IMG/VR virus record: IMGVR_UViG_2874956758_000002 | Span: 1-30,855 of that record | DNA: 30,855 bases | DNA from: a virus | Lineage: Duplodnaviria; Heunggongvirae; Uroviricota; Caudoviricetes | Direction: 5' to 3' (one strand) | Shown here: positions 1-15,918 of the stretch, in pieces | How the letters are laid out: each line of letters starts with the position of its first letter | Position numbering within the stretch: the first letter of the stretch is position 1 | Translations under genes and position numbers: made by a program | The notes under the pieces: model-generated | The model's input: the letters and a program-made list of their open reading frames with translations, nothing else | Told to the model about the DNA's origin: nothing | The model's database searches: none

Positions 1-1152
1 TCATTCCAGCCCGCATTGTTGGCGGTACATTTCAGGGCTGACTGCACCCAGCGATAATTTTATACGCCGCTCGTTATACCATCTGATGTAAGCATCTACA
101 TGCTGCATGAACTTTTCTGGCGTGATGCCCGACCATTTACGCCCATAATACATTTCCGTTTTCAGTCTGCCGAAAAAGCCTTCGCATGCAGCATTATCAG
201 GTGAACATCCTTTACGGGACATTGAGCGAATAAGACCTGCTGCATTCACTCTTTCCAGCCAGCCTGGCCAGCGATAATGCCCACCTCTGTCACTGTGTAT
301 CACCGGTCGTTCGCCAGCATTTAACGTTTCGACAGCGCTATCCAGCATAGTGTTGACCAGTTCAGCATCGGGGCGTGTACTGAGAGACCAGCTCACAACT
401 TTTCCATCGAAGCAGTCCACCACCGGTGACAGCCAGACTTTACCTGCAGGGAGCTGGAACTCCGTGATATCTGTCAGCCATTTCTGATTAGGTTGCTCCG
501 CCTTAAAATCTCTGGCGATAAGGTTATCCGGAGCCGGTCCGATTTTTCCGCAATATGAGCTGTAGCGGCGACGACGGTTACGGCTGACGACAAGCTGTTC
601 CTCCACCATAAGTCTGCGTACAACCTTTTCTGATAGCCGAACCCCCTCATGCCTGAGCATCGCATGCAGGCGACGATAGCCATAACACTGGTAATTACTG
701 TTAAATATATCTGTCAGCATCGTACGTATCGTGGCGTATTTATCACCGGCTTTCAGGGCAGCCCGGTGATAAAAATAACTGCTACGGGCAAGGCCCAGAA
801 CATGCAGTAATTCTGTCAGGGGATATGTTTGTCTCAGGGCATCAGCGATCTTTGTTTTTTCTCTGTTGTTCAGGTGACTGATACTGATGCCCGGGTCTTT
901 TTTTATGATTTCCTCCGCCTTTTTCAGAATATCCAGCTCCATCTGCCGGCGGCGTATTTCCTGATTCAGTCGGGCGACTTCCTCCCGCAACGCATCGCGT
1001 TCTGCCTCCAGGGAAGGTTCGTTATGTTTACGCATAGTCTGGTAAGCACTGTTGCCGATAATTTCATCTTTCCATTTATACAATACCGCACGACTGACAC
1101 CAATACGCCTGGCGATTTCACTGGCTGATACTTGTCGTGTACAGAGTGCCAT
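1..1152 (-). CDS. IS3-family transposase, OrfA (HTH, leucine zipper) fused in-frame to OrfB (DDE domain); element truncated at its 5' end by IS66 copy 1
   Basis: 383-aa ORF with an HTH, a coiled-coil ending in ILKKA, then an OrfB-like region (motif PNQKWLTDITEF, catalytic DDE core). Stop codon at 1..3; ATG at 1150..1152 lies 7 bp from the IS66 end. No frameshift is needed between the OrfA and OrfB parts. Confidence 0.85.
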   Translation of the reverse strand: MALCTRQVSASEIARRIGVSRAVLYKWKDEIIGNSAYQTMRKHNEPSLEAERDALREEVARLNQEIRRRQMELDILKKAEEIIKKDPGISISHLNNREKTKIADALRQTYPLTELLHVLGLARSSYFYHRAALKAGDKYATIRTMLTDIFNSNYQCYGYRRLHAMLRHEGVRLSEKVVRRLMVEEQLVVSRNRRRRYSSYCGKIGPAPDNLIARDFKAEQPNQKWLTDITEFQLPAGKVWLSPVVDCFDGKVVSWSLSTRPDAELVNTMLDSAVETLNAGERPVIHSDRGGHYRWPGWLERVNAAGLIRSMSRKGCSPDNAACEGFFGRLKTEMYYGRKWSGITPEKFMQHVDAYIRWYNERRIKLSLGAVSPEMYRQQCGLE

Positions 1153-1196
1153 GACAGCCGTAAGCGTACAGCGAGGGCCGTATTGACGGGGATGTG

Positions 1197-2735
1197 TTAT
1201 TCAGCTGGCAGTGCTATGCGCCACGGAAGCAGTTCGCTGACCCGGTTGACCGGCCAGTCTGCTATGACGCCAAGCACATGGCGAAGGTAGCTTTCTGGAT
1301 CCACGTCATTCAGTTTGCACGTCCCGATCAGGCTGTACAGTAGCGCTCCCCGCTCACCACCATGGTCAGAGCCGAAGAACAGGAAGTTTTTACGACCCAG
1401 ACTGACCGCCCGCAGGGCATTTTCAGCGATGTTGTTGTCGATTTCCACCCAGCCATCGTTCGCATAGTACGTCAGTGCCGGCCACTGGTTAAGTGCGTAC
1501 GCGAACGCCTTCGCCAACTCTGAGTGTCGCGACAGGGTCTTCATCTTTTCACGCAACCAGCTTTCCAGGGATTTCAACAGCGGTTTCGTTTTTCGCTGAC
1601 GTTCAGCAAGCCGCTGCTCTGCCGGCATTCCCCTTATATCCGCCTCTATGGCGTACAACTGACCGAGCTGCTCCAGGGCTTCTTCCGTCAGTGCTGACGG
1701 GATGCGGACGTGCACATCGTGGATCTTTCGGCGGGCATGAGCCCAGCAGGCAGCTTCCGTTATCCCACCATTGCGGTACAGCTCGTTGAACCCGGCGTAC
1801 GCATCCGCTTGCAGCACACCGCTGAAGCAAGCAAGATGAGTCTGCGGATGGATGCCTTTTCTGTCCGGGCTGTAAGCGAACCACACTGCAGGTGCCAACG
1901 CTGACCCGGCATTGCGGTCATCACGAACATACGCCCACAACCGCCCGGTCTTCGTCTTCTTATTACCCGGCATCAGTACCTGGACCGGGGTATCATCAGC
2001 ATGGAGTTTGCCGTCAGTCATGACATAGCCATGAAGCGCCTCTTCCAGCGGAGACAGCAGCCGGCAGCATGCATCCACCCAGCCCGACAGCAGTGAACGG
2101 CTCAGCTCCACACCTTGCCGGCCGTATATTTCTGACTGGCGATACAGCGGGGTGTGCTCTGCATACTTCGAGGTCAGCACGCGGGCCAGCAGCCCCGGTC
2201 CGGCGATACCCCGCTCGATGGGCCGCGAAGGTGCAGGTGCCTGCACGATGGCATCGCACTGAGTACAGGCATGTTTTTCCCGTACCGTCCGGATAACCCG
2301 GAAGGCACTACGCATCAACTCCAGCTGTTCGGCGGTATCCTCGCCCAGATAGCTCAGTGAACCGCCGCAGTTCGGGCAGCACGGCGCCGCAGGCAACAGT
2401 CGCTTTTCGTCACGGGGTAGTGATTCAGGGAACGGCTTACGGGTGCGGGTCTGACGCAACGGACGCTGTACTGCCGGGTCATACACCCTACCAGTCAGCG
2501 TATCGCTCTCTTTCTGAAGCCGGTTCAGATCGGCTTCCATTTGTGCGATACGGCGGGAGACTTTTTCGGAACGACTGCCGAAGTTCATCCGGCGGAGTTT
2601 ATCCAGCTGCGCCTGCAGATGGTCTATTTCGCGCTCCCGGTTGCTCAGCTTTTCCTGCAGGGCATGGATCAGCGCTTCCTGTTCGGCCAGGCGCTGTTTC
2701 AGCAGGAAGATGTCGTCAGAAGAGATGTCGTTCAT
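1197..2735 (-). CDS. tnpC: IS66-family transposase TnpC
   Basis: 512-aa ORF with N-terminal coiled-coil, CxxC zinc-finger motifs (CCPNCGG, CTQCD) and the characteristic IS66 transposase core; near-identical to ORF 19558..21090. Confidence 0.9.
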
Positions 2736-2784
2736 AAGCCCGTATTTTACCGGGCTTATTCTGTGACAACCAGGATAAAGAGAT

Positions 2785-3132
2785 TTACAGCATGGTCAGG
2801 GAGGTCAGCAGCCGCTTAGGCTGTCGCCAGTCGATACCTTCCAGCAGCATCGCCAGCTGCGCCTGCGTAAGGAACACTTTGCCATCACGGGCTGACGGCC
2901 AGGCGAAGCGCCCACGCTCCAGCCGTTTGGTCAGGAGGCACAGTCCGTCACCGGTGGACCACAGCAGTTTAACCTGACTGCCGCTGCGGCCCCGGAAAAT
3001 GAAAACATGGCCGGACATGGGATCGTCTTTCAGCGCCGTCTGTACTTTCGCAGCCAGACCGTTGAAGCCATTTCTCATATCGGTGATACCGGCAACCAGC
3101 CAAATTTTGGTCCCGGAAGGTAACGGGATCAT
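2785..3132 (-). CDS. tnpB: IS66-family accessory protein TnpB (orf2)
   Basis: 115-aa ORF in the typical position, overlapping the upstream orfA stop (ATGA); identical to ORF 19161..19508. Confidence 0.9.
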
Positions 3133-3530
3133 CGCTTCAGTTCCTGTATCAGCAGAGTCAGGAGCTTTTCGCTGACATTGCCATTGAAGCGGAGCGTCCC
3201 GTGCCGGAACGTTACCTCACAGCTGATACTGAGGGTTTCCGGATCCTCTGCGAGCGATTCTGGCTGTTCGGCAGCTGCATCGAGAGTCACAGGAAGTAGC
3301 TGGGGGCTCTCTGAAGAAGGTAATAGCAGCTTTCCCTCGCGCCATTGTTGTCGCCATTTGAACAACAGATTGGCGTTAATGCCATTTTCAAGAGCAAGTT
3401 TTGAGATGGATATCCCGGGTTCACAGGAGGCAGCAACGAGCTGCTGTTTAAATTCGGGAGGATAATTAGGGCAGCCTTTTCGCCTGCCGGGAGTCACATT
3501 TTTCTGCATATCTGACACTTTGGTTCCCAC
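3129..3530 (-). CDS. tnpA: IS66-family accessory protein TnpA (orf1)
   Basis: 133-aa ORF, first gene of the IS66 operon; identical to ORF 18763..19164. Confidence 0.9.
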   Translation of the reverse strand: MGTKVSDMQKNVTPGRRKGCPNYPPEFKQQLVAASCEPGISISKLALENGINANLLFKWRQQWREGKLLLPSSESPQLLPVTLDAAAEQPESLAEDPETLSISCEVTFRHGTLRFNGNVSEKLLTLLIQELKR

Positions 3531-3600
3531 TACTTATTGGTGGACACCACTTTGTCTAATTCGTCAGATTCTGACCAGACGGTTCAGGCTGTACGCTTAC

Positions 3601-3704
3601 CGTTCTCCACCGACCTCTGTCAGATCGATTTCCCAGAGCACCACGCTGGCCGACTGCTCCGCACGGGTGCATTCATTCAGTGTTTCCTGCCGGATATCCT
3701 GCAT
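3601..3704 (-). pseudogene. L: 5' fragment (34 codons) of lambda-like minor tail protein L gene, interrupted by IS66 copy 1
   Basis: Minus-strand translation from ATG at 3702..3704 reads MQDIRQETLNECTRAEQSASVVLWEIDLTEVGGE, matching the lambda gpL N-terminus as recalled. Ends in GGAGAACG directly abutting the IS66 terminus. Confidence 0.85.
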
Positions 3705-4033
3705 CAGTTCACCACCTGTTCAAACTCTGCGCTGAACTCAACACGCAGCATACTGACCCGCGACGACCATTTTGCGCAGGTCACCTTTATCTGCCGCCAC
3801 TCATAAGGCGGCGTCCACAGAAAGGACTTCCAGCCCCCGTGCTCAGCCAGAAACGACTCAAGCGCCGTGGCCTCCCAACGGGGAACAGAAAGCGTCACGC
3901 TGTACGTTTTCAGGTCGGCATTCAGCCCGGCAGGCGCTCGCTGGGAATAGCCATCACCAAAGCGCACCTTTCTTACGGAAGGGGCCGAAGCCACATCCAT
4001 ACCGGGTTTCACTTTCCAGCGGAAGGTTTTCAT
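3704..4033 (-). CDS. M: lambda-like minor tail protein M
   Basis: 109-aa ORF (MKTFRWKVKPGMDV...FEQVVN) matching lambda gpM in sequence and length; stop overlaps the L start in ATGA. Confidence 0.9.
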   Translation of the reverse strand: MKTFRWKVKPGMDVASAPSVRKVRFGDGYSQRAPAGLNADLKTYSVTLSVPRWEATALESFLAEHGGWKSFLWTPPYEWRQIKVTCAKWSSRVSMLRVEFSAEFEQVVN

Positions 4034-6591
4034 CGTCCACCTCCGGAGAACAGACCACCATCGCGCATCTGCCCGGTCACAACATCCATTGCCGCCTTAC
4101 GGGCTACGTCATAAACCGCCTTCAGCGCCTGTGGCCCTATCTGACCGTTCGTGCCGTCGTTGTTAATCACCACATGGTTATTCTGCTCAAACGTCCCGGA
4201 CGCCTGCGAGCGGCTGTCCGCCATGCTGCCCGGTGTACCGACATAACCGCCGGTGGCATAGCCGCGCATCAGCCGGTAGAGATTTCCCACGCCAATCCGG
4301 CTGGTTGCCTCCTTCGTGAAGACAAATTCACCACGGTGAACAATCCCCGCTGGCTCATATTTGCCGCCGGTTCCCGTAAATCCTCCGGTTGCAAAATGGA
4401 ATTTCGCCGCAGCGGCCTGAATGGCTGTACCGCCTGACGCGGATGCGCCGCCACCAACAGCCCCGCCAATGGCGCTGCCGATACTCCCGACAATCCCCAC
4501 CATTGCCTGCTTAAGCAGAATTTCTGTCATCATGGACAGCACGGAACGGGTGAAGCTGCGCCAGTTCTGCTCACTGCCGGTCAGCATCGCCGCCATATTC
4601 TGTGCAATACCATCAAAGGTCTGCGTGGCTGCACTTTTTACCTGCGACATACTGTCCGTGGCGCTCTCTTCCCACTCACTCCAGCCGGACTTCAGACCTG
4701 CCATCCAGCTCCCGCGAAGCTGGTCTTCAGCCGCCCAGGTCTTTTTCTGCTCTGACATGACGTTATTCAGCGCCAGCGGATTATCGCCATACTGTTCCTT
4801 CAGGCGCTGTTCCGTGGCTTCCCGTTCTGCCTGCCGGTCAGTCAGCCCCCGGCTTTTCGCATCAATGGCGGCCCGTTTTGCCCGTTGCTGCTGTGCGAAT
4901 TTATCCGCCTGCTGCGCCAGCGCGTTCAGGCGCTCCTGATACGTAACCTTGTCGCCAAGTGCAGCCAGCTGGCGTTTGTACTCCAGCGTCTCATCTTTAT
5001 GCGCCAGCAGGGATTTCTCCTGTGCAGACAGCTGGCGACGTTGCGCCGCCTCCTCCAGTACCGCGAACTGACTCTCCGCCTTCCACAAATCCCGGCGCTG
5101 CTGGCTGATTTTCTCATTTGCTCCGGCATGCTTCTCCAGCGTCCGGAGTTCAGCCTGAAGCGTCAGCAGGGCAGCATGAGCACTGTCTTCCTGACGATCG
5201 CCCGCAGACACCTTCACGCCGGACTGTTTCGGCTTTTTCAGCGTCGCTTCATAGTCCTTTTTCGCCGCCGCCATCAGCGTGTTGTAATCTGCCTGCAGAA
5301 TTTTCCCGTCCTTCAGTGCCTTGTTCAGTTCTTCCTGACGGGCGGTATATTTCTCCAGCGGCGTCTGCAGCCGTTCGTAAGCTTTCTGCGCCTCTTCGGT
5401 ATATTTCAGCCGTGACGCTTCAGTATCGCTCTGCTGCTGCGCATTTTTGTCCTGTTGACTCTGCTGTTCAGCCTTCTTTCTCGCGGCTTCAAGCGCAAGA
5501 CGGGCCTTTTCACGATCATCCCAGTAACGCGCCCGCGCTTCATCGTTAACAAAATAATCATCCTTGCGCAGACTCCAGATGTCGTCCGCTTTCTTAAACG
5601 CAGCCTCTGCCTTAATCAGCATCTCCTGAGCGGTATCAGGACGACCAATATCCAGCACCGCATCCCACATGGATTTGAATGCCCGCGCTGTCCTGTCTGC
5701 CCAGGTCTCCAGCGTACCCATGTTCTCTTTCAGACGGCGGGTCTGGTCATCAAACCCTTTCGTCGCGGCCTCGTTCGCCGCCTGCAATGCCCCGGCTTCT
5801 TCGCCGGAACGCTGCAACTGAGCAACATACGCAATCTGCTCCGCCGTCACGTTATGGAACTGGCGCGCCATCGCTGTCAGCCCCGACGTCGGGTCAGTGG
5901 TCAGCTTCCCGAAGGCTTCAGCGACCTTGTCCACCTCCACGCCGGATGCAGAGGAGAAACGCGCCACACTCTGGCTGATGGACGCAATCTGAGCCTCACC
6001 GCTTACCCCCGCCTTAACCAGTGAGCTGAGTGACTCGCTGGTCTGGTTAAACGTCAGCCCTGCCGCCTGGCCAGCTCTGGACAGGACCAGCATACGATCT
6101 GCCGTCAGCCCCGACTGATTGCCGGAAAGGACCAGCGTTTTGTTGAAATCGGACAGGGTTGAGTTGCCCTGATACCAGGCATACGCCAGCGCACCGGTCG
6201 CCACCGCCAGCGAGGTGGCCCCGACCATCGGCAGGGTGATCGCACCGGCAAGCCCCCGGAACATGGGGATTATCCCGCCGAAGGAGTCCTTCACCTGCCC
6301 CCCCTGTTGCAGCAGGATCAGCCACGGACTTTGCCCGCCTGCAAGCTGCGTGGCCACGTCGGTGAACTGTGCAGGCAGCATACGCATGGCGGCTTTATAC
6401 TGCCCGACGGAAATCCCCGCTTTCTGTGCAGCCAGCGCCTGCCGGTTCATCGACTGTTCAACGACTGCCGCTGTTTTTTTCGCATCACTTTCCGTACCGG
6501 AAAAATGACGCCTGACTCTGGCCATCTGCTCGTCAAATCTGGCCGCATCCAGACTTAAATCAACGACCAGATCGCCTACCGGTTCAGCCAT
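4030..6591 (-). CDS. H: lambda-like tail tape measure protein H
   Basis: 853-aa ORF, same length as lambda gpH; long coiled-coil/Ala-Gln-rich centre and Gly-rich C-terminal region; positioned between G/T and M. Confidence 0.9.
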   Translation of the reverse strand: MAEPVGDLVVDLSLDAARFDEQMARVRRHFSGTESDAKKTAAVVEQSMNRQALAAQKAGISVGQYKAAMRMLPAQFTDVATQLAGGQSPWLILLQQGGQVKDSFGGIIPMFRGLAGAITLPMVGATSLAVATGALAYAWYQGNSTLSDFNKTLVLSGNQSGLTADRMLVLSRAGQAAGLTFNQTSESLSSLVKAGVSGEAQIASISQSVARFSSASGVEVDKVAEAFGKLTTDPTSGLTAMARQFHNVTAEQIAYVAQLQRSGEEAGALQAANEAATKGFDDQTRRLKENMGTLETWADRTARAFKSMWDAVLDIGRPDTAQEMLIKAEAAFKKADDIWSLRKDDYFVNDEARARYWDDREKARLALEAARKKAEQQSQQDKNAQQQSDTEASRLKYTEEAQKAYERLQTPLEKYTARQEELNKALKDGKILQADYNTLMAAAKKDYEATLKKPKQSGVKVSAGDRQEDSAHAALLTLQAELRTLEKHAGANEKISQQRRDLWKAESQFAVLEEAAQRRQLSAQEKSLLAHKDETLEYKRQLAALGDKVTYQERLNALAQQADKFAQQQRAKRAAIDAKSRGLTDRQAEREATEQRLKEQYGDNPLALNNVMSEQKKTWAAEDQLRGSWMAGLKSGWSEWEESATDSMSQVKSAATQTFDGIAQNMAAMLTGSEQNWRSFTRSVLSMMTEILLKQAMVGIVGSIGSAIGGAVGGGASASGGTAIQAAAAKFHFATGGFTGTGGKYEPAGIVHRGEFVFTKEATSRIGVGNLYRLMRGYATGGYVGTPGSMADSRSQASGTFEQNNHVVINNDGTNGQIGPQALKAVYDVARKAAMDVVTGQMRDGGLFSGGGR

Positions 6592-6973
6592 ACCGGACTC
6601 CTCCTGCGATCCCTTCTGATACTGTCATCAGCATTACGTCATCCTCCGTCATGTCCGCTACATCCGGGGAAGCGGGGATAACTTCTTTCCCGTCCGGGCC
6701 AAAACGAACGCCTCCGGCAAGCCCTACCGCTTTCTGCATCAGCACATCATCTTCAGGCTCTTCGTCAGCCTCACGCCGGTTAAGCAGACTGAAATCCAGC
6801 GGATGCATATCCGGATCGCTGAAAAACAGGCTGAGCACGGTATATGTCAGCCCGGAAAAGTGCATATCCAGCAGAACATCATGAAAATAATGGGTACTGT
6901 AAAAGCGGTGCCAGTCGGGTCGCCCCATCTCACGCGCCAGTTTCAGGGCAAAACTCAGCTCACCGTCGAACAC
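6584..6973 (-). CDS. T: T-frame portion of tail assembly chaperone GT (expressed by -1 frameshift from G)
   Basis: ORF in the -1 frame relative to G, overlapping the G 3' end and the H start; acidic residues typical of the gpT domain. Confidence 0.8.
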   Translation of the reverse strand: MFDGELSFALKLAREMGRPDWHRFYSTHYFHDVLLDMHFSGLTYTVLSLFFSDPDMHPLDFSLLNRREADEEPEDDVLMQKAVGLAGGVRFGPDGKEVIPASPDVADMTEDDVMLMTVSEGIAGGVRYG

Positions 6974-7377
6974 TTTCCCGCAGAAACAGGCTCTGCAGGC
7001 CCGGCGTCATCTGCCTGTTCAGGAGCATCATTCACCACAAACTCATACATACCGGACAGCCGGTACACCACGTTTTCAGCATGAGAAATTGCCTCCGTGG
7101 GCCAGGTGGTAAGCACTTCCTGCTCAATCTGTTTAACGGCTTCATTCATGGAAGGCAGCTTTGTCTTCTGCGGATGGTTATGCCACAGGGACATCGCCAC
7201 CACAAAAGCGCCGGTTCTGATGGCGTCTTCCACAGTAAACTTCCGGTTGCTGTCTGACTCCGCCTGTTCTGCCTGTCGTTTCATCAGGGCGAGATGCTCA
7301 ATACGCTGCAGGGCTGACAGTTCAGAAAGCGTGACGGTCACACCGTTATGTTCAAATGATTCGGTTTTCAGGAACAT
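6955..7377 (-). CDS. G: lambda-like tail assembly chaperone G
   Basis: 140-aa ORF (MFLKTESFEHNGVTVTLSELSALQRIEHL...) matching lambda gpG. Confidence 0.9.
   Translation of the reverse strand: MFLKTESFEHNGVTVTLSELSALQRIEHLALMKRQAEQAESDSNRKFTVEDAIRTGAFVVAMSLWHNHPQKTKLPSMNEAVKQIEQEVLTTWPTEAISHAENVVYRLSGMYEFVVNDAPEQADDAGPAEPVSAGKCSTVS
6973..6979 (-). promoter_or_regulatory. Programmed -1 ribosomal frameshift slippery heptamer GGGAAAG (G to GT)
   Basis: Plus strand reads CTTTCCC at 6973..6979, i.e. GGGAAAG on the coding strand at the G/T overlap, as in lambda. Confidence 0.8.
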
Positions 7378-7392
7378 CGCTGACTCTCCGGA

Positions 7393-8133
7393 TTAACTGG
7401 CGGTGACGTTGATTTCTGCAACCGCAGCAAGTTCACCATTACCGGATACGACAGGAATGTTGACCTTGCCTGCAGCAACACCTTTCACGGTGATGGTCAT
7501 ACCACTGACCGACACGGTGGCTTTTGTTTTATCCGCAGACACCGCACGGAGGCTCTTGTCGGTTGCGCCTTCCGGCTGGAATGCCACGGTCAGCGTGGTG
7601 CTCTGCCCTTTCACCACCGAGGTGCTGGCAGGCGTCACGGTCATGCCGGTTGCCGCTGTGACCGTGCTGCGATCTTCTGCCATCGACGGACGTCCCACGT
7701 TGGTGACTTTCACCGTGCGGGTGATCACTTCCTTCGCCGTCACCGCCTTACCGATACTGCTGACCCAGCCGCGGAACACATCGACCGTGCCGTTCGGGAA
7801 GCGGATTTTATAGGCACGGGTATCCCCTTCATTAAACCACGCCAGCAGCGCCTGCTGCCCCTGCTCTCCGGGCATCCACGCCAGCGTGAAGCTGGTATCT
7901 CCGGCAGATTTCTGCCCCTGCCCGGTCGCAGTCCAGTCCGCATCTTCATCATCGAGATAGCTGTCGTCATAGGACTCAGCGGTCAGTTCGCCGGGCGTCA
8001 GGTCTTTAACTTTAGCCAGACGCGACCAGTCAACGTCTGAAAGCGGGTTCGCATAAGGATCACCGTTCCCCTTATAAACCCACAGTGTGGTCCCGGCCCC
8101 TTTCACCGGCATTACTGGATTTGATACAGGCAT
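7393..8133 (-). CDS. V: lambda-like major tail protein V
   Basis: Matches lambda gpV from [22 protein letters not shown]; start chosen at the internal Met (8133) giving 246 aa as in lambda; the ORF track extends 10 codons further upstream. Confidence 0.85.
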
Positions 8134-8140
8134 ATCGTCC

Positions 8141-8536
8141 TCACATTTCATAGGTAATGACATAAGTCAGATCGGCTGAACTCCACAGGCCCGCATCATC
8201 GTCGCGCCGGTAGTCATAGCCGCTGGCCACCATACTGGTGATCAAATCTGACAGTGCCGGGATATCGCTCATCACCGGATAAATCCGGGACTCCATCCAC
8301 GAATCCAGCTCTGAATCCGGCACCTGAGCAGGCAGGAAAACTTCAATATGCAGCTCCGCCTGCCAGGTATCGCTGTCCAGCTCTTCGCCCGTGTATTCAG
8401 CGCCGGTGAGATAAACGGCAATTGCCGGAAAATCCGCCTCATCAAAAACAGCGGGGCGACCATCAAAAAGCGTCGCCCCGGTGTCATGCTTTTCCAGTGC
8501 ATCCAGTACGGCTGCACGGAGTTCAGTATGTTTCAT
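8141..8536 (-). CDS. U: lambda-like tail terminator protein U
   Basis: 131-aa ORF ([33 protein letters not shown]...) matching lambda gpU. Confidence 0.9.
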
Positions 8537-9110
8537 CGCTTTATTACCATTCTCAGTTGATGCTGCAGCGCATAGCCCAGCTCTTTCGGAAGACGTTCAC
8601 GCCGTATCCGTTCAATATTCTGTTTAAATGCCGTGGTAAGCGGCACCGCCATCGGAATTTTCACCACATCAATGGGGTAACGATTTTTCCCGGCCACACG
8701 CTGCATGACATGCCACCGGCCATTTTTCAGTTGCTGAATAAACGCGCCGGGAATACGACGGTTACCCACCACAAGCACGCTGCCGCCACCTTTCAGGGAT
8801 GAACGCTGCCCCTTTTTACGACGCCTGCGGCGGGACAGGACAACCCGCGCATTACCCAGCTTGATTACGGGCAAATCCCCCGGTTAACTTTGATTCTGGC
8901 CTGCGGATTTTTGACCGTGGCCCTTTTCAGCCTGGCCCTTTCCTTTACCAGTTTCCGGCGTACCTTTGTCTCACGGGCAACCTGTGACGCCGACTGCGAT
9001 ATCGCGGATGAAGCAACGCGGTTAATGGCCATTGCGGCGGCACCAGGGACCGCCGTTTTGCTGATACGGCTGAGGTTTTCAACGGCCTGCTCAAGACCTT
9101 TTATGGCCAT
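8533..9110 (-). pseudogene. Z: lambda-like tail completion protein Z, disrupted by a 1-bp deletion in a G run (or sequencing error)
   Basis: N-terminal 78 aa (ORF 8865..9110) and C-terminal 113 aa (ORF 8533..8874) both match lambda gpZ but lie in different frames. The frame break is at the C5 run 8877..8881 (G5 on the coding strand), where lambda as recalled has G6. Confidence 0.8.
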
Positions 9111-9121
9111 ACATCCCCCTT

Positions 9122-9475
9122 TCAGCGGCGACGGTTAACGGCAGGCGGTACGCCCCGTCCAAGCCAGAGATGACAGCTTCCACCATCATCCGGCGAAACC
9201 CGATCTACCCAGAAGTTTTCCTCACCGATGGTCAGCGTGTCTCCACGCCGCAGCTGCAGCACCTCATCAGTCCGGACAAACAGGGGCGGGCTGGAGCCTT
9301 CAACGCGCACGCCCTGTCCGGCATAGCTGATATTTTCAGGGTCATCAAAAACACCACGTATCACAGCACCGGACTGCTCACCGGATGTCATGGTGGCTGA
9401 CGTTCCCATGTACCCGCGTATCGTTTCATCGGCTCGGGCAATGGCAGCATCGAACAGATTATCGAAATCAGCCAC
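9122..9475 (-). CDS. FII: lambda-like head-tail joining protein FII
   Basis: 117-aa ORF (MADFDNLFDAAIARADETIRGYMG...) matching lambda gpFII in sequence and length. Confidence 0.9.
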   Translation of the reverse strand: MADFDNLFDAAIARADETIRGYMGTSATMTSGEQSGAVIRGVFDDPENISYAGQGVRVEGSSPPLFVRTDEVLQLRRGDTLTIGEENFWVDRVSPDDGGSCHLWLGRGVPPAVNRRR

Positions 9476-9486
9476 AGCGCCTCCCG

Positions 9487-9882
9487 TTATTGCATTCTGG
9501 CCAGGCCGCGCTCTGTCATTTCAACTGCCACACCGGCAGAGACACGGAACGCCGTTCCCGGCAGCACAAATGCCACAGGTTCATCCCGCGTGGCGTGAAG
9601 TGCATCGGTATGCAGCGTCACCAGTGCCACAACCGTGACCAGAGCAGCCGTATCAGTCACGGTATCCGTCTGTGCTGATACCACCTCATTTTTATGTCCG
9701 GTCAGCGCATTTTCCGGGCTGACAGACGTGTCCTGACCGGCTGCGTCATCCGTGTCATCAAGCTCCTCTTCCAGCTCTGCCACACGGAGCGCCAGTTCTT
9801 CTTTCGTCCCCGTCAGGCTGACATCACGGTTCAGTTGCTCACCCAGCGACCGGAGACGGGCAATCAGTTCATCTTTCGTCAT
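9487..9882 (-). CDS. FI: lambda-like DNA packaging protein FI
   Basis: Matches lambda gpFI from MTKDELIARLRSLGEQLNRDVSL; start at the internal Met preceded by GGAGGA. Confidence 0.85.
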   Translation of the reverse strand: MTKDELIARLRSLGEQLNRDVSLTGTKEELALRVAELEEELDDTDDAAGQDTSVSPENALTGHKNEVVSAQTDTVTDTAALVTVVALVTLHTDALHATRDEPVAFVLPGTAFRVSAGVAVEMTERGLARMQ

Positions 9883-9923
9883 GGACTCCTCCACAGAGAG
9901 AAAATGGCCCCGAAGGGCCATGA

Positions 9924-10961
9924 TTACGCCAGTTGAACGGACACGAACTCATCAGGATCAGCCAGCAGCATCAGCGGTGCTGACTGAATCATGGTGAACT
10001 CTCGCGCCGGATCGCCGGATGTCTTCCAGTTTTTCGGATAACGGGGAGACGCATTAATACCCTCACTCAATGCATCCGCATCCTGAATACAGCCATAGGT
10101 ACGCAGACCGCGTGCATGAGTGTTACCCAGCACCATCGTGTTGTCCGGCAGGAAGTTCTTTTTGACGCCGTTTTCCACGTACTGTCCGGAATACACGACG
10201 ATGGCCACATCGCCATACATTCCCTTATAAGACACCGCTTTGCCCAGGTCTTTTACCGCTGTCTCCAGTTCGGAATTAGAACCACGACGGGTATCCAGAG
10301 CCTCTTTTATCGCTCTGAATGAACGGTATTTCTTCCATACATTACCGCCCATAATGATGATATTAGTGACGCCCTCACTAAATTCTGCGTAGCTCTCAAT
10401 ATCATCATTTGGATCAAAAGTTTCTTTATCCTTACCTGACCACTCAGCACCGCCAAACTGAGTGATGATATTTTGTGGTTTAATATTCCAGTCCAGCTCA
10501 TAACGTTCAATACCATCGCCCTCAATGATATTTTTCCCCGTTGTGATTGCCTGAACAGCAAGCCATTCAATACGTGCACGAATAGCTTTAGCTTGATTTA
10601 CAATCGCCTGTTTAACTTTAATATTACGCGCCCCAAAAGCATTGTATTGCTCAGGTGATACACCAGCAGGGCGCACAGCTAACTTATTTGGATCAATGCT
10701 GCTTTTCGGCTTCATATAGCCTGGACGAATTGTTTTTGATTCGTACCCTTCGTCACGTGAAACTTTACTACCCACCATAGGAGAACAAAACGCTGCAATT
10801 GGGATATTTGGATCGTCGATTGTATCAAGAATAATATCGCGCGATTCAAACATTACCGAGCGAGTAAAAAACAAACTGGTAAACAACGCATTTAGTTGTT
10901 TTTGTACATCTACAGCATTAACCACCTGTACAAGCTGAGTAGGCGAATATAAATCAACCAT
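9924..10961 (-). CDS. E: major capsid protein, lambda gpE family (mosaic: divergent 5' two-thirds, lambda-like 3' third)
   Basis: C-terminal ~115 aa (from LDTRRGSNSELETAVKDLGKAVSYKGMYGDV to SVQLA) are near-identical to lambda gpE as recalled; the N-terminal ~230 aa are homologous but divergent and AT-rich. Start assigned to ATG at 10959..10961 (MVDLYSPTQL) preceded by AGAGGA. Confidence 0.8.
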   Translation of the reverse strand: MVDLYSPTQLVQVVNAVDVQKQLNALFTSLFFTRSVMFESRDIILDTIDDPNIPIAAFCSPMVGSKVSRDEGYESKTIRPGYMKPKSSIDPNKLAVRPAGVSPEQYNAFGARNIKVKQAIVNQAKAIRARIEWLAVQAITTGKNIIEGDGIERYELDWNIKPQNIITQFGGAEWSGKDKETFDPNDDIESYAEFSEGVTNIIIMGGNVWKKYRSFRAIKEALDTRRGSNSELETAVKDLGKAVSYKGMYGDVAIVVYSGQYVENGVKKNFLPDNTMVLGNTHARGLRTYGCIQDADALSEGINASPRYPKNWKTSGDPAREFTMIQSAPLMLLADPDEFVSVQLA

Positions 10962-11178
10962 ACGCATCCTCTTTGCATTCATTAAAAATAATTGTGGATA
11001 TATGCTATCACCGATATTTGTCATGCGAACACATGCAACCGAGTGCAATGTTGTATAAAGTTTTGGGGTGACAACTTCAGTGCGGACAATTAGTGTTAAT
11101 ATCTTCACTCCCTTTGGTCGGGATTTATGTAGCATGCTGGAAAATTTATTTTTTCCGGCCTTTTTTTATTGGCAATAT

Positions 11179-11634: not shown

Positions 11635-11961
11635 TGAGGTAGCCTGAGTTTAACGGACACTCCTTCCTGAAATAGAATGGCATCAGAAGGAGCTAATAAT
11701 GAGCAGAAAAACCCAACGTTACTCTAAAGAGTTCAAAGCCGAAGCTGTCAGAACGGTTCTTGAAAATCAACTTTCGATCAGTGAAGGCGCTTCCCGATTA
11801 TCCCTTCCTGAAGGCACTTTAGGACAATGGGTTACCGCCGCCAGAAAAGGGCTCGGTACTCCTGGTTCCCGCACGGTGGCTGAACTGGAATCTGAAATTC
11901 TGCAACTGCGTAAGGCGTTAAATGAAGCTCGCCTTGAGCGAGATATATTAAAAAAAGCAAC
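11635..11961 (+). mobile_element. IS3-family (IS600-like) left-end fragment: IRL plus 5' ~93 codons of orfA, arm 1 of an inverted pair flanking IS30
   Basis: Begins TGAGGTAGCCTGAGTTTAACGG. Encodes the OrfA N-terminus MSRKTQRYSKEFKAEAVRTVLENQ...ILKKATVDS, then runs into the IS30 end; the rest of the element is absent. Confidence 0.7.
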
Positions 11962-13182
11962 TGTAGATTCAATTGGTCAACGCAACAGTTATGTGAAAAC
12001 ATGGGGTTGCGGAGGTTTTTTGAATGAGACGAACATTTACAGCAGAGGAAAAAGCCTCTGTTTTTGAACTATGGAAGAACGGAACAGGCTTCAGTGAAAT
12101 AGCGAATATCCTGGGTTCAAAACCCGGAACGATCTTCACTATGTTAAGGGATACTGGCGGCATAAAACCCCATGAGCGTAAGCGGGCTGTAGCTCACCTG
12201 ACACTGTCTGAGCGCGAGGAGATACGAGCTGGTTTGTCAGCCAAAATGAGCATTCGTGCGATAGCTACTGCGCTGAATCGCAGTCCTTCGACGATCTCAC
12301 GTGAAGTTCAGCGTAATCGGGGCAGACGCTATTACAAAGCTGTTGATGCTAATAACCGAGCCAACAGAATGGCGAAAAGGCCAAAACCGTGCTTACTGGA
12401 TCAAAATTTACCATTGCGAAAGCTTGTTCTGGAAAAGCTGGAGATGAAATGGTCTCCAGAGCAAATATCAGGATGGTTAAGGCGAACAAAACCACGTCAA
12501 AAAACGCTGCGAATATCACCTGAGACAATTTATAAAACGCTGTACTTTCGTAGCCGTGAAGCGCTACACCACCTGAATATACAGCATCTGCGACGGTCGC
12601 ATAGCCTTCGCCATGGCAGGCGTCATACCCGCAAAGGCGAAAGAGGTACGATTAACATAGTGAACGGAACACCAATTCACGAACGTTCCCGAAATATCGA
12701 TAACAGACGCTCTCTGGGACATTGGGAGGGCGATTTAGTCTCAGGTACAAAAAACTCTCATATAGCCACACTTGTAGACCGAAAATCACGTTATACGATC
12801 ATCCTTAGACTCAGGGGCAAAGATTCTGTCTCAGTAAATCAGGCTCTTACCGACAAATTCCTGAGTTTACCGTCAGAACTCAGAAAATCACTGACATGGG
12901 ACAGAGGAATGGAACTGGCCAGACATCTAGAATTTACTGTCAGCACCGGCGTTAAAGTTTACTTCTGCGATCCTCAGAGTCCTTGGCAGCGGGGAACAAA
13001 TGAGAACACAAATGGGCTAATTCGGCAGTACTTTCCTAAAAAGACATGTCTTGCCCAATATACTCAACATGAACTAGATCTGGTTGCTGCTCAGCTAAAC
13101 AACAGACCGAGAAAGACACTGAAGTTCAAAACACCGAAAGAGATAATTGAAAGGGGTGTTGCATTGACAGATTGAATCTACA
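11962..13182 (+). mobile_element. IS30, complete (1221 bp)
   Basis: Terminal inverted repeats TGTAGATTCAAT at both ends; single 383-aa transposase ORF; length matches IS30. Confidence 0.9.
12024..13175 (+). CDS. insI: IS30 transposase
   Basis: 383-aa ORF with N-terminal HTH and C-terminal DDE domain, recognised as the IS30 transposase. Confidence 0.9.
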   Translation: MRRTFTAEEKASVFELWKNGTGFSEIANILGSKPGTIFTMLRDTGGIKPHERKRAVAHLTLSEREEIRAGLSAKMSIRAIATALNRSPSTISREVQRNRGRRYYKAVDANNRANRMAKRPKPCLLDQNLPLRKLVLEKLEMKWSPEQISGWLRRTKPRQKTLRISPETIYKTLYFRSREALHHLNIQHLRRSHSLRHGRRHTRKGERGTINIVNGTPIHERSRNIDNRRSLGHWEGDLVSGTKNSHIATLVDRKSRYTIILRLRGKDSVSVNQALTDKFLSLPSELRKSLTWDRGMELARHLEFTVSTGVKVYFCDPQSPWQRGTNENTNGLIRQYFPKKTCLAQYTQHELDLVAAQLNNRPRKTLKFKTPKEIIERGVALTD

Positions 13183-13508
13183 GTTGCTTTTTTTAATATA
13201 TCTCGCTCAAGGCGAGCTTCATTTAACGCCTTACGCAGTTGCAGAATTTCAGATTCCAGTTCAGCCACCGTGCGGGAACCAGGAGTACCGAGCCCTTTTC
13301 TGGCGGCGGTAACCCATTGTCCTAAAGTGCCTTCAGGAAGGGATAATCGGGAAGCGCCTTCACTGATCGAAAGTTGATTTTCAAGAACCGTTCTGACAGC
13401 TTCGGCTTTGAACTCTTTAGAGTAACGTTGGGTTTTTCTGCTCATTATTAGCTCCTTCTGATGCCATTCTATTTCAGGAAGGAGTGTCCGTTAAACTCAG
13501 GCTACCTC
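13183..13508 (-). mobile_element. IS3-family (IS600-like) left-end fragment, arm 2, inverted copy of 11635..11961
   Basis: Reverse complement reproduces the same IRL and OrfA N-terminus (ORF 13095..13445 is identical through VDSI). Its outer end overlaps the xis start codon. Confidence 0.7.
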
Positions 13509-13745
13509 ATGGGCAATGTGATTCAACTGGCTCCCAATGAATGGGTTTGTGAAAGCGTTCTTATCGCAATTACCGGGCTCAAACCAGGCACAATTCTCCG
13601 AGCCCGGAAAGAATGCTGGATGGTAGGAAGAGAGTATATTCACGTATCACCAGACGGTAATCCAAAGCCATCCAGCGAATGTATGTATAACAGAAAAGCA
13701 ATAGATGCCTGGGTCTCTTCAATGAAAAACAAACAACCTGGGTGA
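13508..13745 (+). CDS. xis: putative excisionase (DUF1233-type Xis)
   Basis: Small ORF immediately upstream of and co-oriented with the integrase; motif pattern (IQLAPNEWV...LTGLKPGTI.RARKECWMVGREY) resembles DUF1233 excisionases as recalled. Start taken at ATG 13508..13510; the ORF track begins 16 codons upstream, inside the IS arm. Confidence 0.6.
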
Positions 13746-13800: not shown

Positions 13801-15114
13801 ATGGATAAAGTCAAATATCCAACAGGCGTCGAAAACCACGGTGGCACATTACGCATCTGGTTTAATTTTAAAGGTAAACGTGTCAGGGAAAATCTTGGTG
13901 TCCCTGACACTGCCAAGAACAGGAAGATCGCCGGAGAGCTGCGGACATCTGTATGTTTTGCCATTCGTACAGGAAATTTTGATTATGCTGCGCAGTTCCC
14001 TGACTCTCCTAACCTCAAGGCTTTTGGGGTAAATAAAAAAGAAATTACGGTGAAAGAACTTGAAGAAAAATGGCTGGATCTGAAACGAATGGAAATCTCT
14101 GCAAATGCATTCAATCGCTATGAATCCATTGCAAGGATGATGGTTCCGAAGATTGGTGGCAACCGACTGGTATCAGCAGTGACCAAAGAGGAATTGCTGT
14201 ATATCAGGAAAGATTTGCTGACCGGATACCAAAATCCAACAAAAGGTAAAGCTCCAGTAAAAGGACGAAGCGTTGTCACAGTAAATTATTACATGACAAC
14301 AATCGCTGGAATGTTTCAGTTTGCTGCAGATCACGGTTACTTAGAAGCAAATCCCTTCGAGGGAATTAAGCCTCTTAAAAGAGCCAAGGCAGAACCAGAT
14401 CCGCTAACTCGTGACGAATTTATTCGCCTGATAGATGCTTGCCGGCATCAGCAGACAAAAAACCTGTGGTCATTGGCTGTGTACACAGGAATGCGTCATG
14501 GTGAACTGGTCTCCCTGGCCTGGGAAGATATCGATCTGAAAGCAGGAACAATTACTATCAGGCGCAATTATACGAAACTCGGTGAGTTCACTCTACCTAA
14601 AACTGAAGCAAGTACAAACAGGGTTGTGCATCTTATCCAGCCCGCTATCAGTGTCCTGAAAAATCAGGCTGAAATGACAAGACTGGGTAAGCAGCACAAC
14701 ATCAAGGTTCAACTACGTGAATATGGACGTTCAGTAAATCATGAATGTACTTTCGTATTTAACCCCCAGGTGGTTAGAAAAAGCAAACAGGTAGGTTTTA
14801 TCTACAAGGTAGATTCCATTGGCGACTCATGGGAAACAGCCATTAAACGTGCAGGCATCAGGCATCGAAAGGCATACCAGTCACGACACACTTATGCGTG
14901 CTGGTCATTATCTGCCGGAGCAAATCCAAGCTTCATTGCCAGCCAGATGGGGCATGCAAGTGCCCAGATGGTGTTCAATGTATACGGAGCATGGATGACT
15001 GACAGCAATGCAGAACAGATCGCAATGCTGAATCAGAAGCTGGCAGATTATGTCCCAATGATGTCCCATGGTCACCAAAGTGACACAAGAGGCTTATTAA
15101 AATCAGTGAGTTAG
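13801..15114 (+). CDS. int: prophage tyrosine integrase
   Basis: 437-aa ORF with a C-terminal tyrosine-recombinase catalytic region (R...HxxR...Y); RBS GGAGG upstream; reads toward the host junction as lambda int does. Confidence 0.9.
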   Translation: MDKVKYPTGVENHGGTLRIWFNFKGKRVRENLGVPDTAKNRKIAGELRTSVCFAIRTGNFDYAAQFPDSPNLKAFGVNKKEITVKELEEKWLDLKRMEISANAFNRYESIARMMVPKIGGNRLVSAVTKEELLYIRKDLLTGYQNPTKGKAPVKGRSVVTVNYYMTTIAGMFQFAADHGYLEANPFEGIKPLKRAKAEPDPLTRDEFIRLIDACRHQQTKNLWSLAVYTGMRHGELVSLAWEDIDLKAGTITIRRNYTKLGEFTLPKTEASTNRVVHLIQPAISVLKNQAEMTRLGKQHNIKVQLREYGRSVNHECTFVFNPQVVRKSKQVGFIYKVDSIGDSWETAIKRAGIRHRKAYQSRHTYACWSLSAGANPSFIASQMGHASAQMVFNVYGAWMTDSNAEQIAMLNQKLADYVPMMSHGHQSDTRGLLKSVS

Positions 15115-15140
15115 CTTTTAATACCCGTCATGTTAACTGT
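15115..15140. other. prophage/host attachment junction (att core region) within yecE
   Basis: Integrase stop at 15112..15114 is followed within ~10 bp by sequence that, read in the yecE frame, matches the YecE interior as recalled (...RHVNCVEGNTT). Exact core not determinable without the other junction. Confidence 0.5.
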
Positions 15141-15866: not shown

Positions 15867-15918
15867 ATTTGCCACCTATCATAGACAGGTGCCATCGGCC
15901 ATTTTAAAGGGAGTTTGT

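Follow-up and report, generated by a model that had tools for sequence, protein, structure and literature searches.

Does a run of seven A's that holds the OrfA-like and OrfB-like parts of an IS3-family transposase in one reading frame reflect a homopolymer error, an accident of one copy or the native state of the element, and which proteins would the element then make? The question arose from a sequence-only reading of the 30,855 nt stretch of viral DNA analysed here (IMGVR_UViG_2874956758_000002; hereafter the window), which described a minus-strand ORF passing from an HTH and leucine zipper directly into a DDE domain, with the A-run inside it. The sequence, the ORF list and Pfam agree with that description. 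The same reading left the choice between a natural fused-frame variant and a length error, and predicted that the copy would make only the OrfAB fusion, with no separate OrfA regulator. As set out below, the fused frame is native, the window's own copy is a dead remnant, and the conserved signals at the junction probably serve to produce an OrfA-like protein from intact copies.

Results

A split and inverted remnant of an IS150-like element

The features of the locus are collected in Table 1. Compared with full-length copies, the ORF corresponds to residues 128-510 of a ~510-aa single-frame transposase, and the ATG at 1152 is the internal Met128, not the true gene start. Pfam placed HTH_21 at residues 148-195 of the ORF and rve, rve_2 and rve_3 at 219-379 (rve, 1.3e-18), with HTH_Tnp_1 at residues 7-66 scoring 23.9 bits, marginally below its cut-off of 24.1. 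This order, a DDE (rve) domain after an HTH and leucine-zipper region, is that of the IS3 family, and the rebuilt full-length transposase scored 427 bits against NCBIfam NF033516 (IS3 family transposase, cut-off 160). The terminal repeats of full-length copies (TGGGGATGCGGACGATTTCCTGGACT ... AGTCCAGGAAATCGTCCGCATCCCCA) are 25 nt long, 96% complementary and of the form TG...CA, in keeping with the 20-40 bp inverted repeats, 5'-TG to CA-3', of that family. The family's usual two overlapping ORFs, with orfB in the -1 frame, are not seen here; that layout is typical of the IS3 family but not universal, and NCBIfam still files the protein as IS3 family. PGAP labels it only as "IS3 family transposase", and one Shigella record labels a fragment "IS150 ORF B".

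Table 1. Features of the IS3-family remnant and its surroundings in the window
Feature	Position	Strand	Basis
3' fragment of IS3-family (IS150-like) IS; element nt 416-1575 of ~1606	1..1159	minus	blastn
Remnant ORF, 383 aa, ATG start	1..1152	minus	ORF list and Pfam
3' arm of conserved stem; CUGAUGCCC at 845..837	837..847	minus	RNAfold, RNAalifold, pair counts
-1-frame UGA stop, inside 3' arm of stem	842..844	minus	read from sequence
5' arm of conserved stem; GGGCAUCAG at 892..884	882..892	minus	RNAfold, RNAalifold, pair counts
A7 run, slippery heptamer A_AAA_AAA in 0-frame phase	898..904	minus	plus-strand T7
IS66-family element copy A (tnpA, tnpB, tnpC; ends GTAAGCG...CGCTTAC)	1158..3600	minus	Pfam, boundary comparison
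5' fragment of same IS3-family element (element nt 2-346); IRL and first ~100 codons (MFTEEEK...)	18348..18692	plus	blastn
IS66-family element copy B, 99.6% identical to copy A, inverted relative to A	18693..21129	plus	boundary comparison

An IS66-family element cuts the IS3-family element at 1159/1160: similarity to other IS3-family copies starts at 1159, and above it lies the end of IS66 copy A, whose ORF at 1197..2735 matches DDE_Tnp_IS66 (Pfam, 4.4e-107). By blastn, a full-length copy (L003:1086-2692) is 98.9% identical to the window over 1160 nt, and the 5' fragment, 17 kb from the 3' fragment, shows 98.3% identity over 345 nt. The IRL (TGGGGATGCGGACGATTTCCTGGACT) is present in the window from 18348 onward, and the right inverted repeat lies past the window start, outside the window. 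The left flank of IS66 copy A and the right flank of copy B have an 8-bp duplication, GGAGAACG, in common. The window's IS3-family copy is 5'-truncated, split by the IS66-family element, and has had its halves parted by an IS66-mediated inversion. Its 3' fragment also lacks the first HTH domain; with the promoter, the IRL and the first 127 codons absent, it is dead and yields no functional product, so the expectation that this particular copy would make the OrfAB fusion does not hold. Elsewhere, an IS3-family query found 2289 matching places in 1626 of 5426 E. coli genomes.

At the run itself the codons are AUA AAA AAA (I K K) followed by GAC, in the minus-strand context gag gaa atc ata aaa aaa gac ccg ggc. 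Deleting one A gives AUA AAA AAG ACC ... ACC UGA, the stop being codon 12 when AUA is codon 1, as the sequence-only reading had stated for an A6 version with OrfB in the -1 frame; the +1-frame stop 8 codons beyond KK agrees with this one-A-deleted reading. Seven runs of the A7 type occur in the window against 4.6 +/- 2.9 expected; this count is not statistically unusual, and the significance of the run comes from comparative conservation only.

The native state is A7 in one frame

Three full-length E. coli copies carry A7 and are read through it in one frame, as is the closest intact-length copy, which lies on a Shigella boydii plasmid, is 99.7% identical and also has A7. Using 99-nt and 98-nt queries for the A7 and A6 versions, we found the A7 99-mer at 99% identity or better in ~700 E. 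coli records and A6 with otherwise perfect flanks in 12 of ~1139 matching E. coli records. Of these 12, 11 belong to a single assembly series, and a strain of that series shows A6 on three different replicons, as would be expected of an assembly artefact. A shorter, 61-nt query around the run returned no E. coli match, low-complexity masking having probably left it too little seed. One sequence cluster with 1567 members encodes the intact 510-aa ORF. Independent gene calls gave single ORFs for more than 100 listed homologues, 509-515 aa in length. Where examined copies are labelled as pseudogenes or as having a "programmed frameshift", the label goes back to stop codons or 1-bp indels at other places in the gene.

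The comparison was extended to 82 loci from other species (among them Enterobacteria, Burkholderiales, Rhizobia and Firmicutes), down to ~40% identity; 80 of these were the best-scoring of at least 582 tblastn matches, and frameshifted two-ORF relatives may be under-sampled among them. Within this best-scoring set, 76 of the 82 loci read NUA AAA AAA, four have A_AAA_AAG, one has lost the heptamer and one has A12, and the frame is continuous through the junction in 80. Transposases of 509-515 aa form a clade spanning Enterobacteria, Burkholderiales, Pseudomonas, Rhizobiales, Halomonas and Firmicutes. A7 in the fused frame is the wild-type state of the IS and of this large multi-phylum clade. 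The natural fused-frame variant of the sequence-only reading is thus the reference state, naturally single-frame in E. coli, in Shigella and across phyla, and a copy-specific event in the window is contradicted by the other copies compared.

A conserved heptamer, stem and -1 stop

In our alignment (A3) of 74 sequences, the codon before KK is ATA in 33, CTA in 21, TTA in 17 and GTA in 3 (74/74 NUA), and the KK codons are AAAAAA in 69/74 and AAAAAG in 4/74, such that 73 of the 74 have an in-phase slippery heptamer, either A_AAA_AAA or A_AAA_AAG. Among intact ORFs, NNA-AAA-AAA is used in 64 of 69, against a median of 1.1% (about 1-2%) expected from their own codon usage. A_AAA_AAA is kept in phase at synonymous positions against the codon usage of the hosts. 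A Shine-Dalgarno (SD)-like GGAGG lies 7 nt upstream in the enterobacterial lineage only, where the protein has KAEE instead of KANE, and we rejected it as a general stimulator on account of that restriction.

Downstream of the heptamer is an 11-bp stem whose 5' arm begins after 5 nt, within the 4-10 nt range of stimulatory structures. RNAfold gives the window copy -18.8 kcal/mol (z = -3.1), a modest value for the stem of the E. coli lineage, and RNAalifold recovers the stem from the alignment. All 11 pairs form in 54 of the 74 sequences and 10 of the 11 in another 19; pairing is seen in 90% of cells, and sliding the partner columns lowers this to 28-51%. Compensatory changes occur at nine pairs, and the observed values were reached by none of 500 shuffles, controls that leave some phylogenetic relatedness in the pair statistics. 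At pair 31-78, for example, 34 sequences have GC, 32 have AU and 7 have GU. Amino acids are altered by some of the compensations, among them an otherwise invariant Asp (L063/L065, L069/L075, L082). Synonymous-codon identity reaches its whole-gene peak at codons -3 to +27 around the site (2.44, against a mean of 1.28, sd 0.21), a stretch that covers the stem. L012, alone in having lost the heptamer, is likewise alone in carrying a C-U mismatch at pair 31-78, a coincidence suggesting that heptamer and stem work together. The whole recoding cassette is small, about 70 nt.

Further pairings inside the stem, an inner helix (columns 43-48 with 55-60) and an extension (39-41 with 68-70), were considered and rejected as conserved features, with 83% of cells pairing and little covariation; they are strong in Burkholderiales-type members (L015: -38.8 kcal/mol, z = -6.1) and weak in the E. 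coli lineage.

The -1 frame closes 18 codons past the heptamer in 54/74 sequences and 10 codons past it in 11/74; most of the others have a -1 stop at 4-25 codons, and two have none in the aligned stretch. The triplet within the 3' arm is TGA in 66 of the 74 aligned sequences. A +1-frame stop at 8 codons is present in 56/74. The arrangement is that of dnaX, with the full product in frame 0 and the -1 frame closed by a near stop.

Discussion

Proposed recoding

The heptamer and the covarying stem are conserved far beyond the needs of the protein, which points to a truncated OrfA-like protein made by -1 frameshifting and leaves the earlier expectation of no separate OrfA regulator unsupported. 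We consider it likely, from the comparative sequence evidence, that an IS150-like IS has its native recoding region here, with the fused transposase as the default product and a -1 shift giving the OrfA-like protein. In intact copies, standard translation would produce the full OrfAB-type transposase, while a fraction of ribosomes would slip by -1 on A_AAA_AAA with the stem as stimulator. The slipped ribosomes would stop 18 codons on, ending the protein with ...EEIIKK and then RPGHQYQSPEQQRKNKDR; the transframe junction peptide is predicted to be ...AEEIIKK followed by RPGHQYQSPEQQR. The short product, of ~230 aa, would contain the HTH domains and leucine zipper without the catalytic domain, and could be the functional equivalent of the OrfA regulator, following the tau/gamma logic of dnaX as a mirror image of the canonical IS3 arrangement. 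In E. coli reporters, A_AAA_AAA on its own gave 0.4% frameshifting, a figure raised to 0.8% by the IS911 stimulators and to 25% by the IS3 pseudoknot (PMC4066793, Table S3). Unless a strong stimulator is present, this heptamer shifts less in E. coli than A_AAA_AAG does.

More tentatively, and at somewhat less than even confidence, the clade as a whole may run the recoding of the IS3 family in reverse, with the transposase in frame 0 and an OrfA-type regulator made by -1 frameshifting, a single A interconverting the two layouts and the same signals being reused.

Comparison with known systems

A close parallel in sequence is IS150 (insJ/insK of E. coli K-12), to whose OrfAB fusion the transposase is 36% identical over 466 aa (BLASTP, E = 5e-83). 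Each protein carries additional HTH domains at its N-terminus, a leucine zipper that closes with a KK motif, and a DDE domain; the one described here extends ~55 aa further at the N-terminal end. In both elements the first A of the slippery run is the third base of an I/L codon and is followed by a 5-6-nt spacer and a ~10-bp stem; IS150 has CUA AAA AAG, a 6-nt spacer and a 10-bp stem with similar folding energy and z-score, and the 3' arms of the two stems lie over aligned codons (NELR and DALR). However, the IS150 run is A6G and its orfB lies in the -1 frame, with the long protein as the product of frameshifting, whereas the present IS has A7G with the catalytic part in frame 0, and its frameshift would lead to a short one. 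The suggestion of an extra A that mimics the frameshift at the DNA level is a fair account of the clade relative to IS150 (CUA AAA AAG against NUA AAA AAA G). That the join falls exactly at the IS3-family heptamer position, as was also proposed, stands to within a few codons but not to the codon, since in BLASTP the KK of the IS150 shift site aligns either on this KK or on an ILKK six codons upstream; the downstream hairpins align within one codon.

In layout a close parallel is E. coli dnaX (tau/gamma), where a long 0-frame product, a phased A_AAA_AAR with a downstream stem-loop and a near -1 stop are likewise combined, and where ribosomes that shift by -1 make a protein shortened at its C-terminus that has a role of its own (PMC5009743). 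The dnaX products belong to an unrelated protein family; their -1 stop comes after a single codon, and an SD-like stimulator upstream plays a part, whereas here the stop is 18 codons downstream, in the stem, and the GGAGG is found in the enterobacterial lineage only. Experiments have proven the dnaX mechanism, whereas that of the IS is deduced from sequence.

IS911, IS3 and IS2, with canonical -1 frameshifting, belong to the same family and have the same domain order, and the outcome expected here would match theirs: a pair of proteins with a common DNA-binding and zipper part, of which only one has the catalytic domain. Compared with these the frames are swapped here, the default product being the transposase and not OrfA, and the expected OrfAB:OrfA ratio is accordingly inverted. 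An A-run at the OrfA/OrfB junction is also found in IS1447/IS120, IS3-family elements that use transcriptional slippage on A9. In IS1447, however, the transposases are ~383-400 aa, +1 slippage is needed for OrfAB and the hairpin is upstream, in contrast to the ~510-aa proteins, shift-independent transposase and downstream covarying stem of the present clade. The paper on these elements mentions in passing non-Firmicutes relatives with "no or -1 frameshifting" (PMC6211511). We also examined the IS cluster A_AAA_AAA_1 of PMC4066793 as a possible instance of the same arrangement and rejected it, as it is IS600, which is canonical.

Alternative explanations

A homopolymer error or copy-specific mutation, hiding a true A6 and canonical overlapping orfA/orfB, has in its favour that homopolymers are error-prone, that the 12 A6 records have the same flanks and that A6 would make a textbook A_AAA_AAG in the right phase. 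Against the ~700 E. coli records and the nearest Shigella copy with A7, the 76 of 82 other-species loci with A7, all in one frame (80 of the 82 being the best of at least 582 matches), the more than 100 independently called ORFs and the origin of 11 of the 12 A6 records in one batch, it is scarcely credible. A DNA-level phase switch, in which replication slippage would toggle the run between A7 (fused, transposase-rich) and A6 (two-ORF, transposase-poor), draws on the same observation that A6 would give a perfect canonical layout with the same stem, on the existence of A6 and A12 variants and on frame-shifted OrfA-length products in metagenome gene calls. Yet the variants are rare (about 1-2% in E. 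coli and 1/82 loci elsewhere, 80 of these the best of at least 582) and mostly sit in error-prone assemblies or pseudogenes, the metagenome examples carry further frameshifts in the same protein, A7 is short for efficient phase variation, and a switch alone would leave the stem unexplained; we regard it as very improbable. Canonical two-ORF relatives with an OrfA-sized protein were sought with an 85-aa HTH-zipper segment against 1.84 billion cluster representatives. A few products of 215-230 aa (P0129, P0162 and P0185) end in the +1 or -1 frame after KK; they have other frame errors in their N-terminal parts, and we treat them as noisy assemblies and not as support for a canonical sister group. 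No 510-aa representative was among the matches listed, and the listing therefore carries little weight for or against such a group.

Two further explanations accept the conserved signals and give them another role. An A7 run can support RNA-polymerase slippage, so part or all of the truncated product could arise at the transcript level, A6 and A8 transcripts giving truncated OrfA-like proteins without ribosomal frameshifting. Thermus dnaX and IS1447 are model cases, the latter an IS3-family element for whose slippage seven A's are sufficient (PMC6211511); E. coli genes strongly avoid AAAAAAA in each of the three phases, a bias partly ascribed to transcriptional slippage (PMC4066793); and near stops close both other frames here (+1 at 8 codons in 56/74, -1 at 18 codons in 54/74). 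Transcriptional slippage usually needs a run of at least nine, often with an upstream hairpin, although seven are enough in IS1447 (PMC6211511; PMC1088944). That this mechanism acts here in place of ribosomal frameshifting is unlikely: four lineages have A_AAA_AAG, which brings the run down to six while keeping or improving ribosomal slipperiness; the covarying stem is downstream at the 5-nt spacing typical of ribosomal stimulators, whereas slippage hairpins are upstream (PMC6211511); and in IS150 a cassette of this geometry has been proven to act as a ribosomal signal (PMC4066793). Heptamer and stem might otherwise serve a translational pause that aids co-translational folding and cis-action of the transposase, or RNA processing or binding, with the full-length protein as the only product, and a pause at the frameshift signal has indeed been tied to cis preference in IS911 (PMC5009743). 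A pause, however, needs no phased A_AAA_AAA/G at three synonymous positions with rare codons, and the joint loss of heptamer and pair 31-78 in L012 also speaks against such a role, which we judge quite improbable.

Implications

On a practical level, A7 at this site should not be "corrected" to A6; the homopolymer-error explanation fails on the rarity and common origin of the A6 records. Users should also be aware that automatic "programmed frameshift" labels on this IS mislead, as in the examined copies they compensate for unrelated indels in the DDE region. We found no earlier description of reversed IS3 recoding in the open-access literature searched, which included PMC4066793, PMC5009743, PMC1088944, PMC6211511, PMC3606827, PMC7371123 and PMC3196728. 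Searches based on disrupted ORFs would have missed it, among them GeneTack and the slippage screen of Baranov 2005, from which cases with truncated products were explicitly excluded.

If -1 frameshifting to an OrfA-like protein is correct, the clade would offer a natural experiment, with a single nucleotide inverting the OrfAB:OrfA ratio of an IS3-family element and both products kept, and it would bear on frameshift efficiency as the setter of transposition rate and on cis-preference. It would also add a broadly distributed dnaX-style case to the few bacterial examples in which a frameshift leads to a shorter protein.

The fused frame is native to the element

The A7 run lies at 904..898 on the minus strand (...GAG GAA AUC AUA AAA AAA GAC CCG GGC...), inside the 383-aa transposase ORF of an IS150-like remnant of the IS3 family. 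Domain matches along this ORF (HTH_Tnp_1, borderline; HTH_21; rve, rve_2 and rve_3) bear out the sequence-only reading of one frame running from HTH to DDE domain. Its thought-experiment with six A's also holds, the frame then reading AUA AAA AAG ACC through to a UGA and leaving the catalytic part in the -1 frame. Runs of seven A's are unremarkable across the window (7 seen against 4.6 expected).

A homopolymer length error, one of the two origins proposed in that reading, is ruled out by the public record: 700 E. coli records match a 99-nt query centred on A7 at 99% identity or more, whereas an A6 version of the query (one A removed) finds a perfect match in only 12 E. coli records, all other listed records aligning to it with a 1-nt gap. 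The 12 A6 sites occur in NZ_JBRE*, NZ_CM128603.1 and NZ_AP043646.1, with 11 from one accession series. In strain E203449 of that series the chromosome and two plasmids all have A6, and the pattern looks as if a single sequencing project had systematically under-called homopolymers. Nor did A7 arise by mutation in this copy alone, as A7 with straight read-through is shared by three full-length copies from E. coli and by the closest one from a Shigella boydii plasmid (99.7% identical), which leaves the other proposed origin, a natural fused frame. The window site is an ordinary truncated IS remnant with native sequence, neither an error nor a private variant.

PGAP labels of “programmed frameshift” or “internal stop” on full-length copies trace to 1-bp indels or stops elsewhere. 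In the two copies with RefSeq “programmed frameshift” joins, L001 (NZ_CP019243.1) and L003 (NZ_LR778147.1), neither annotated frame change is located at the A-run; each is needed because one base pair has been lost or gained within the DDE region, at the equivalents of window positions 282 and 374, and the label looks like automatic rescue of ordinary frameshift mutations.

Truncation by IS66-family elements

Full-length E. coli copies encode a protein of about 510 aa (MFTEEEKIRAIELYF...QQCGLE) within a ~1606-bp element bounded by 25-nt inverted repeats that start with TG and end with CA, and the apparent start codon of the window ORF is Met128 of this protein. Similarity to other copies of the element begins at 1159; the sequence above this point belongs to an IS66-family element, copy A, at its right end (...CGCTTAC). 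The missing 5′ end of the IS3-family element adjoins a second, inverted copy of the IS66-family element, copy B, which is 99.6% identical to copy A. Of the 8-bp duplication GGAGAACG, one repeat flanks copy A on its left and the other flanks copy B on its right; we therefore conclude that the ~15 kb between them was inverted by their recombination, which also explains the split of the lambdoid tail genes between strands. Both halves of the IS3-family element are present in the window except for nt 347-415 (69 nt), absent at the IS66 junctions, and there is no 8-bp duplication across the two halves at these junctions; a small adjacent stretch was therefore deleted during or after the IS66 insertion. 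The IS3-family copy in the window is dead.

Features of the window
Feature	Position	Strand	Details
Remnant transposase ORF	1..1152	-	383 aa
Stem 5′ arm	892..884	-	GGGCAUCAG
Stem 3′ arm	845..837	-	CUGAUGCCC
IS66-family copy A	1158..3600	-	flank 3601..3608
TnpC ORF of IS66-family element	1197..2735		
Tape measure, tube and capsid genes	4030..11135	-	
Inverted repeat pair	11635..11961 / 13183..13511		
IS3-type OrfA ORF	11699..12067	+	122 aa; HTH_Tnp_1
IS30-type transposase ORF	12024..13175	+	383 aa; HTH_38 plus rve
Phage integrase gene	13801..15114	+	
Methyltransferase gene 1	16355..17098	+	
Methyltransferase gene 2	17095..18066	+	Pfam Methyltransf_9/DUF1698
Missing 5′ end of IS3-family element	18348..18692	+	nt 2-346, with left inverted repeat
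IS66-family copy B	18693..21129	+	flank 21130..21137
J and tail fibre genes	23109..30274	+	

The region 11699..13175 is another nested IS arrangement, in which the IS30-type ORF directly follows and overlaps the OrfA ORF; both arms of the inverted repeat pair match one Shigella boydii plasmid stretch, and the shared length of the IS30-type and remnant ORFs is a coincidence. Between the prophage structural genes and the IS3-family 5′ fragment sit the integrase and two methyltransferase genes (13801..18066). We take the latter to be cmoA/cmoB-like, in which case the locus would be chromosomal, IS-rich and of E. coli or Shigella type.

A single-frame clade with a phased heptamer and a conserved stem

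A search at the protein level gave thousands of relatives. Of the top 120, almost all are 509-515 aa long; they are single-ORF calls drawn from many sources, with 56-84% identity, and belong to Salmonella, Dickeya, Enterobacter, Rahnella, Pseudomonas, Cupriavidus, Burkholderia, Ensifer and others. Both lysines encoded by the slippery AAA AAA (KK) are invariant in this comparison. The fused frame is native, and a large clade inherited the single-frame design from its ancestor. We read the DNA at the site in 82 loci, 80 from species-representative genomes (the best of at least 582 tblastn matches) and two more distant. NUA AAA AAA G is present in 76 of the 82 and NUA AAA AAG in four; one locus, L012 (Paraburkholderia sp. 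GAS448), no longer has the heptamer (AAAAGAA, K to E), and one, L072 (Novosphingobium rosa), is a pseudogene with A12 and an in-frame stop further on. Hosts are often GC-rich (GC3 up to 0.82), and each gene's own codon usage predicts NNA-AAA-AAA by chance at 1.1% (median; mean 2.4%), against 93% observed in 69 intact ORFs. The codon before KK, whether AUA, CUA, UUA or GUA, also ends in A in every case. Selection is acting on nucleotides rather than protein.

Downstream, 74 distinct sequences align gap-free and RNAalifold places a stem at columns 28-36 with 73-81, 5 nt from the heptamer. When the stem is taken as 11 bp (27-37 with 72-82) and inner helices are included, pairing is found in 90% of cells, against 28-51% with partners slid, and nine pairs show compensatory changes; the observed values were reached by 0 of 500 shuffles, a control that only partly removes phylogenetic relatedness. 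At pair 31-78, 34 sequences have GC, 32 have AU and 7 have GU; at pair 36-73, 36 have CG, 20 have UA and 15 have UG. Amino acids on both sides are altered by several compensations: in L063/L065 V becomes A and D becomes G, in L082 V becomes G and D becomes V, and in L069/L075 a silent Ile change (AUC to AUU) accompanies D to N. The sole copy without the heptamer, L012, is also the sole sequence in which pair 31-78 is a C-U mismatch. The stem 3′ arm contains a -1-frame UGA (TGA in 66 of 74 sequences), with the -1 stop 18 codons away in 54 and 10 in 11. A simple whole-gene scan of synonymous sites peaks exactly at the slippery site and stem (ratio 2.44; mean 1.28, sd 0.21). Predicted folds reach -18.8 kcal/mol for the window copy (z = -3.1) and -38.8 kcal/mol for a Polaromonas copy (z = -6.1). 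Both the phased heptamer and this stem are under selection.

A second synonymous-conservation peak lies 45-51 codons (135-150 nt) upstream of A7 in related loci (e.g. L009, L015 and L033), corresponding to ~1035..1050 of the window. Its motif is GAGG, 10-11 nt, then AUG AAA CG, the in-frame Met being Met167 in E. coli numbering; the SD-like GAGG precedes it in most non-enterobacterial members and is absent from the E. coli lineage. The Met167 equivalent may be an internal start for an N-terminally truncated product. In the enterobacterial lineage only, the KAEE codons (GCG GAG GAA) give GGAGG (912..916, minus strand) 7 nt upstream of the heptamer, a spacing at which -1 frameshifting can be stimulated by SD-like sequences; KANE replaces KAEE in the other lineages, which lack GGAGG.

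Comparison with IS150 and a probable reversed arrangement

The IS150 OrfAB fusion of E. coli K-12 is 36% identical to the ~510-aa protein (E = 5e-83), and IS150 carries CUA AAA AAG followed, after a 6-nt spacer, by a 10-bp stem (-18.5 kcal/mol, z = -3.2) whose 3′ arm lies over codons NELR of the -1 frame. Since NELRQFYPL of IS150 aligns on DALRQTYPL, the two hairpins are positionally equivalent, although in the same alignment the placement of KK is ambiguous by six codons. That the IS150 signal is a frameshift site stimulated by a stem-loop is established (Vogele et al. 1991, cited in PMC4066793). One nucleotide of frame separates the clade from IS150: there the long protein requires the shift, whereas in the clade it is made by default and shifting would yield a short one.

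Transcriptional slippage on A7 could also change the frame (PMC6211511). We consider it unlikely and favour ribosomal shifting, because the stimulator lies downstream of the run at canonical ribosomal spacing, because four lineages use A_AAA_AAG with just six A's, and because IS150 uses this geometry as a ribosomal signal. Frameshifting on A_AAA_AAA, measured with reporters in E. coli, is 0.4% without a stimulator, rises to 0.8% when the stimulators of IS911 are present and reaches 25% with the pseudoknot of IS3 (PMC4066793, Table S3).

The fused ORF is already annotated publicly as a ~510-aa “IS3 family transposase”, and the fused frame of the sequence-only reading is not new. In the open-access literature covered, we found no description of a clade-wide in-phase slippery site with a covarying stem in a single-ORF IS3 lineage, although an earlier one may exist. 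A 2016 recoding review covers IS elements in the canonical direction only (PMC5009743), a survey of E. coli motifs gives no such IS cluster (PMC4066793), a slippage screen left out truncated-product cases by design (Baranov 2005), and the IS1447 paper mentions relatives with “no or -1 frameshifting” without analysis (PMC6211511).

The interest of the site sits at the level of the clade, as a probable reversed frameshift arrangement in which a nearby -1 stop accompanies the native fused frame and the selected heptamer and stem. In intact elements, standard decoding would yield the ~58-kDa transposase, and -1 slippage a product of ~230 aa (residues 1-212 plus 18), which would keep the HTH domains and zipper but lack the catalytic domain. 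This product would be the equivalent of OrfA, by the same logic, if the analogy holds, as dnaX tau and gamma.
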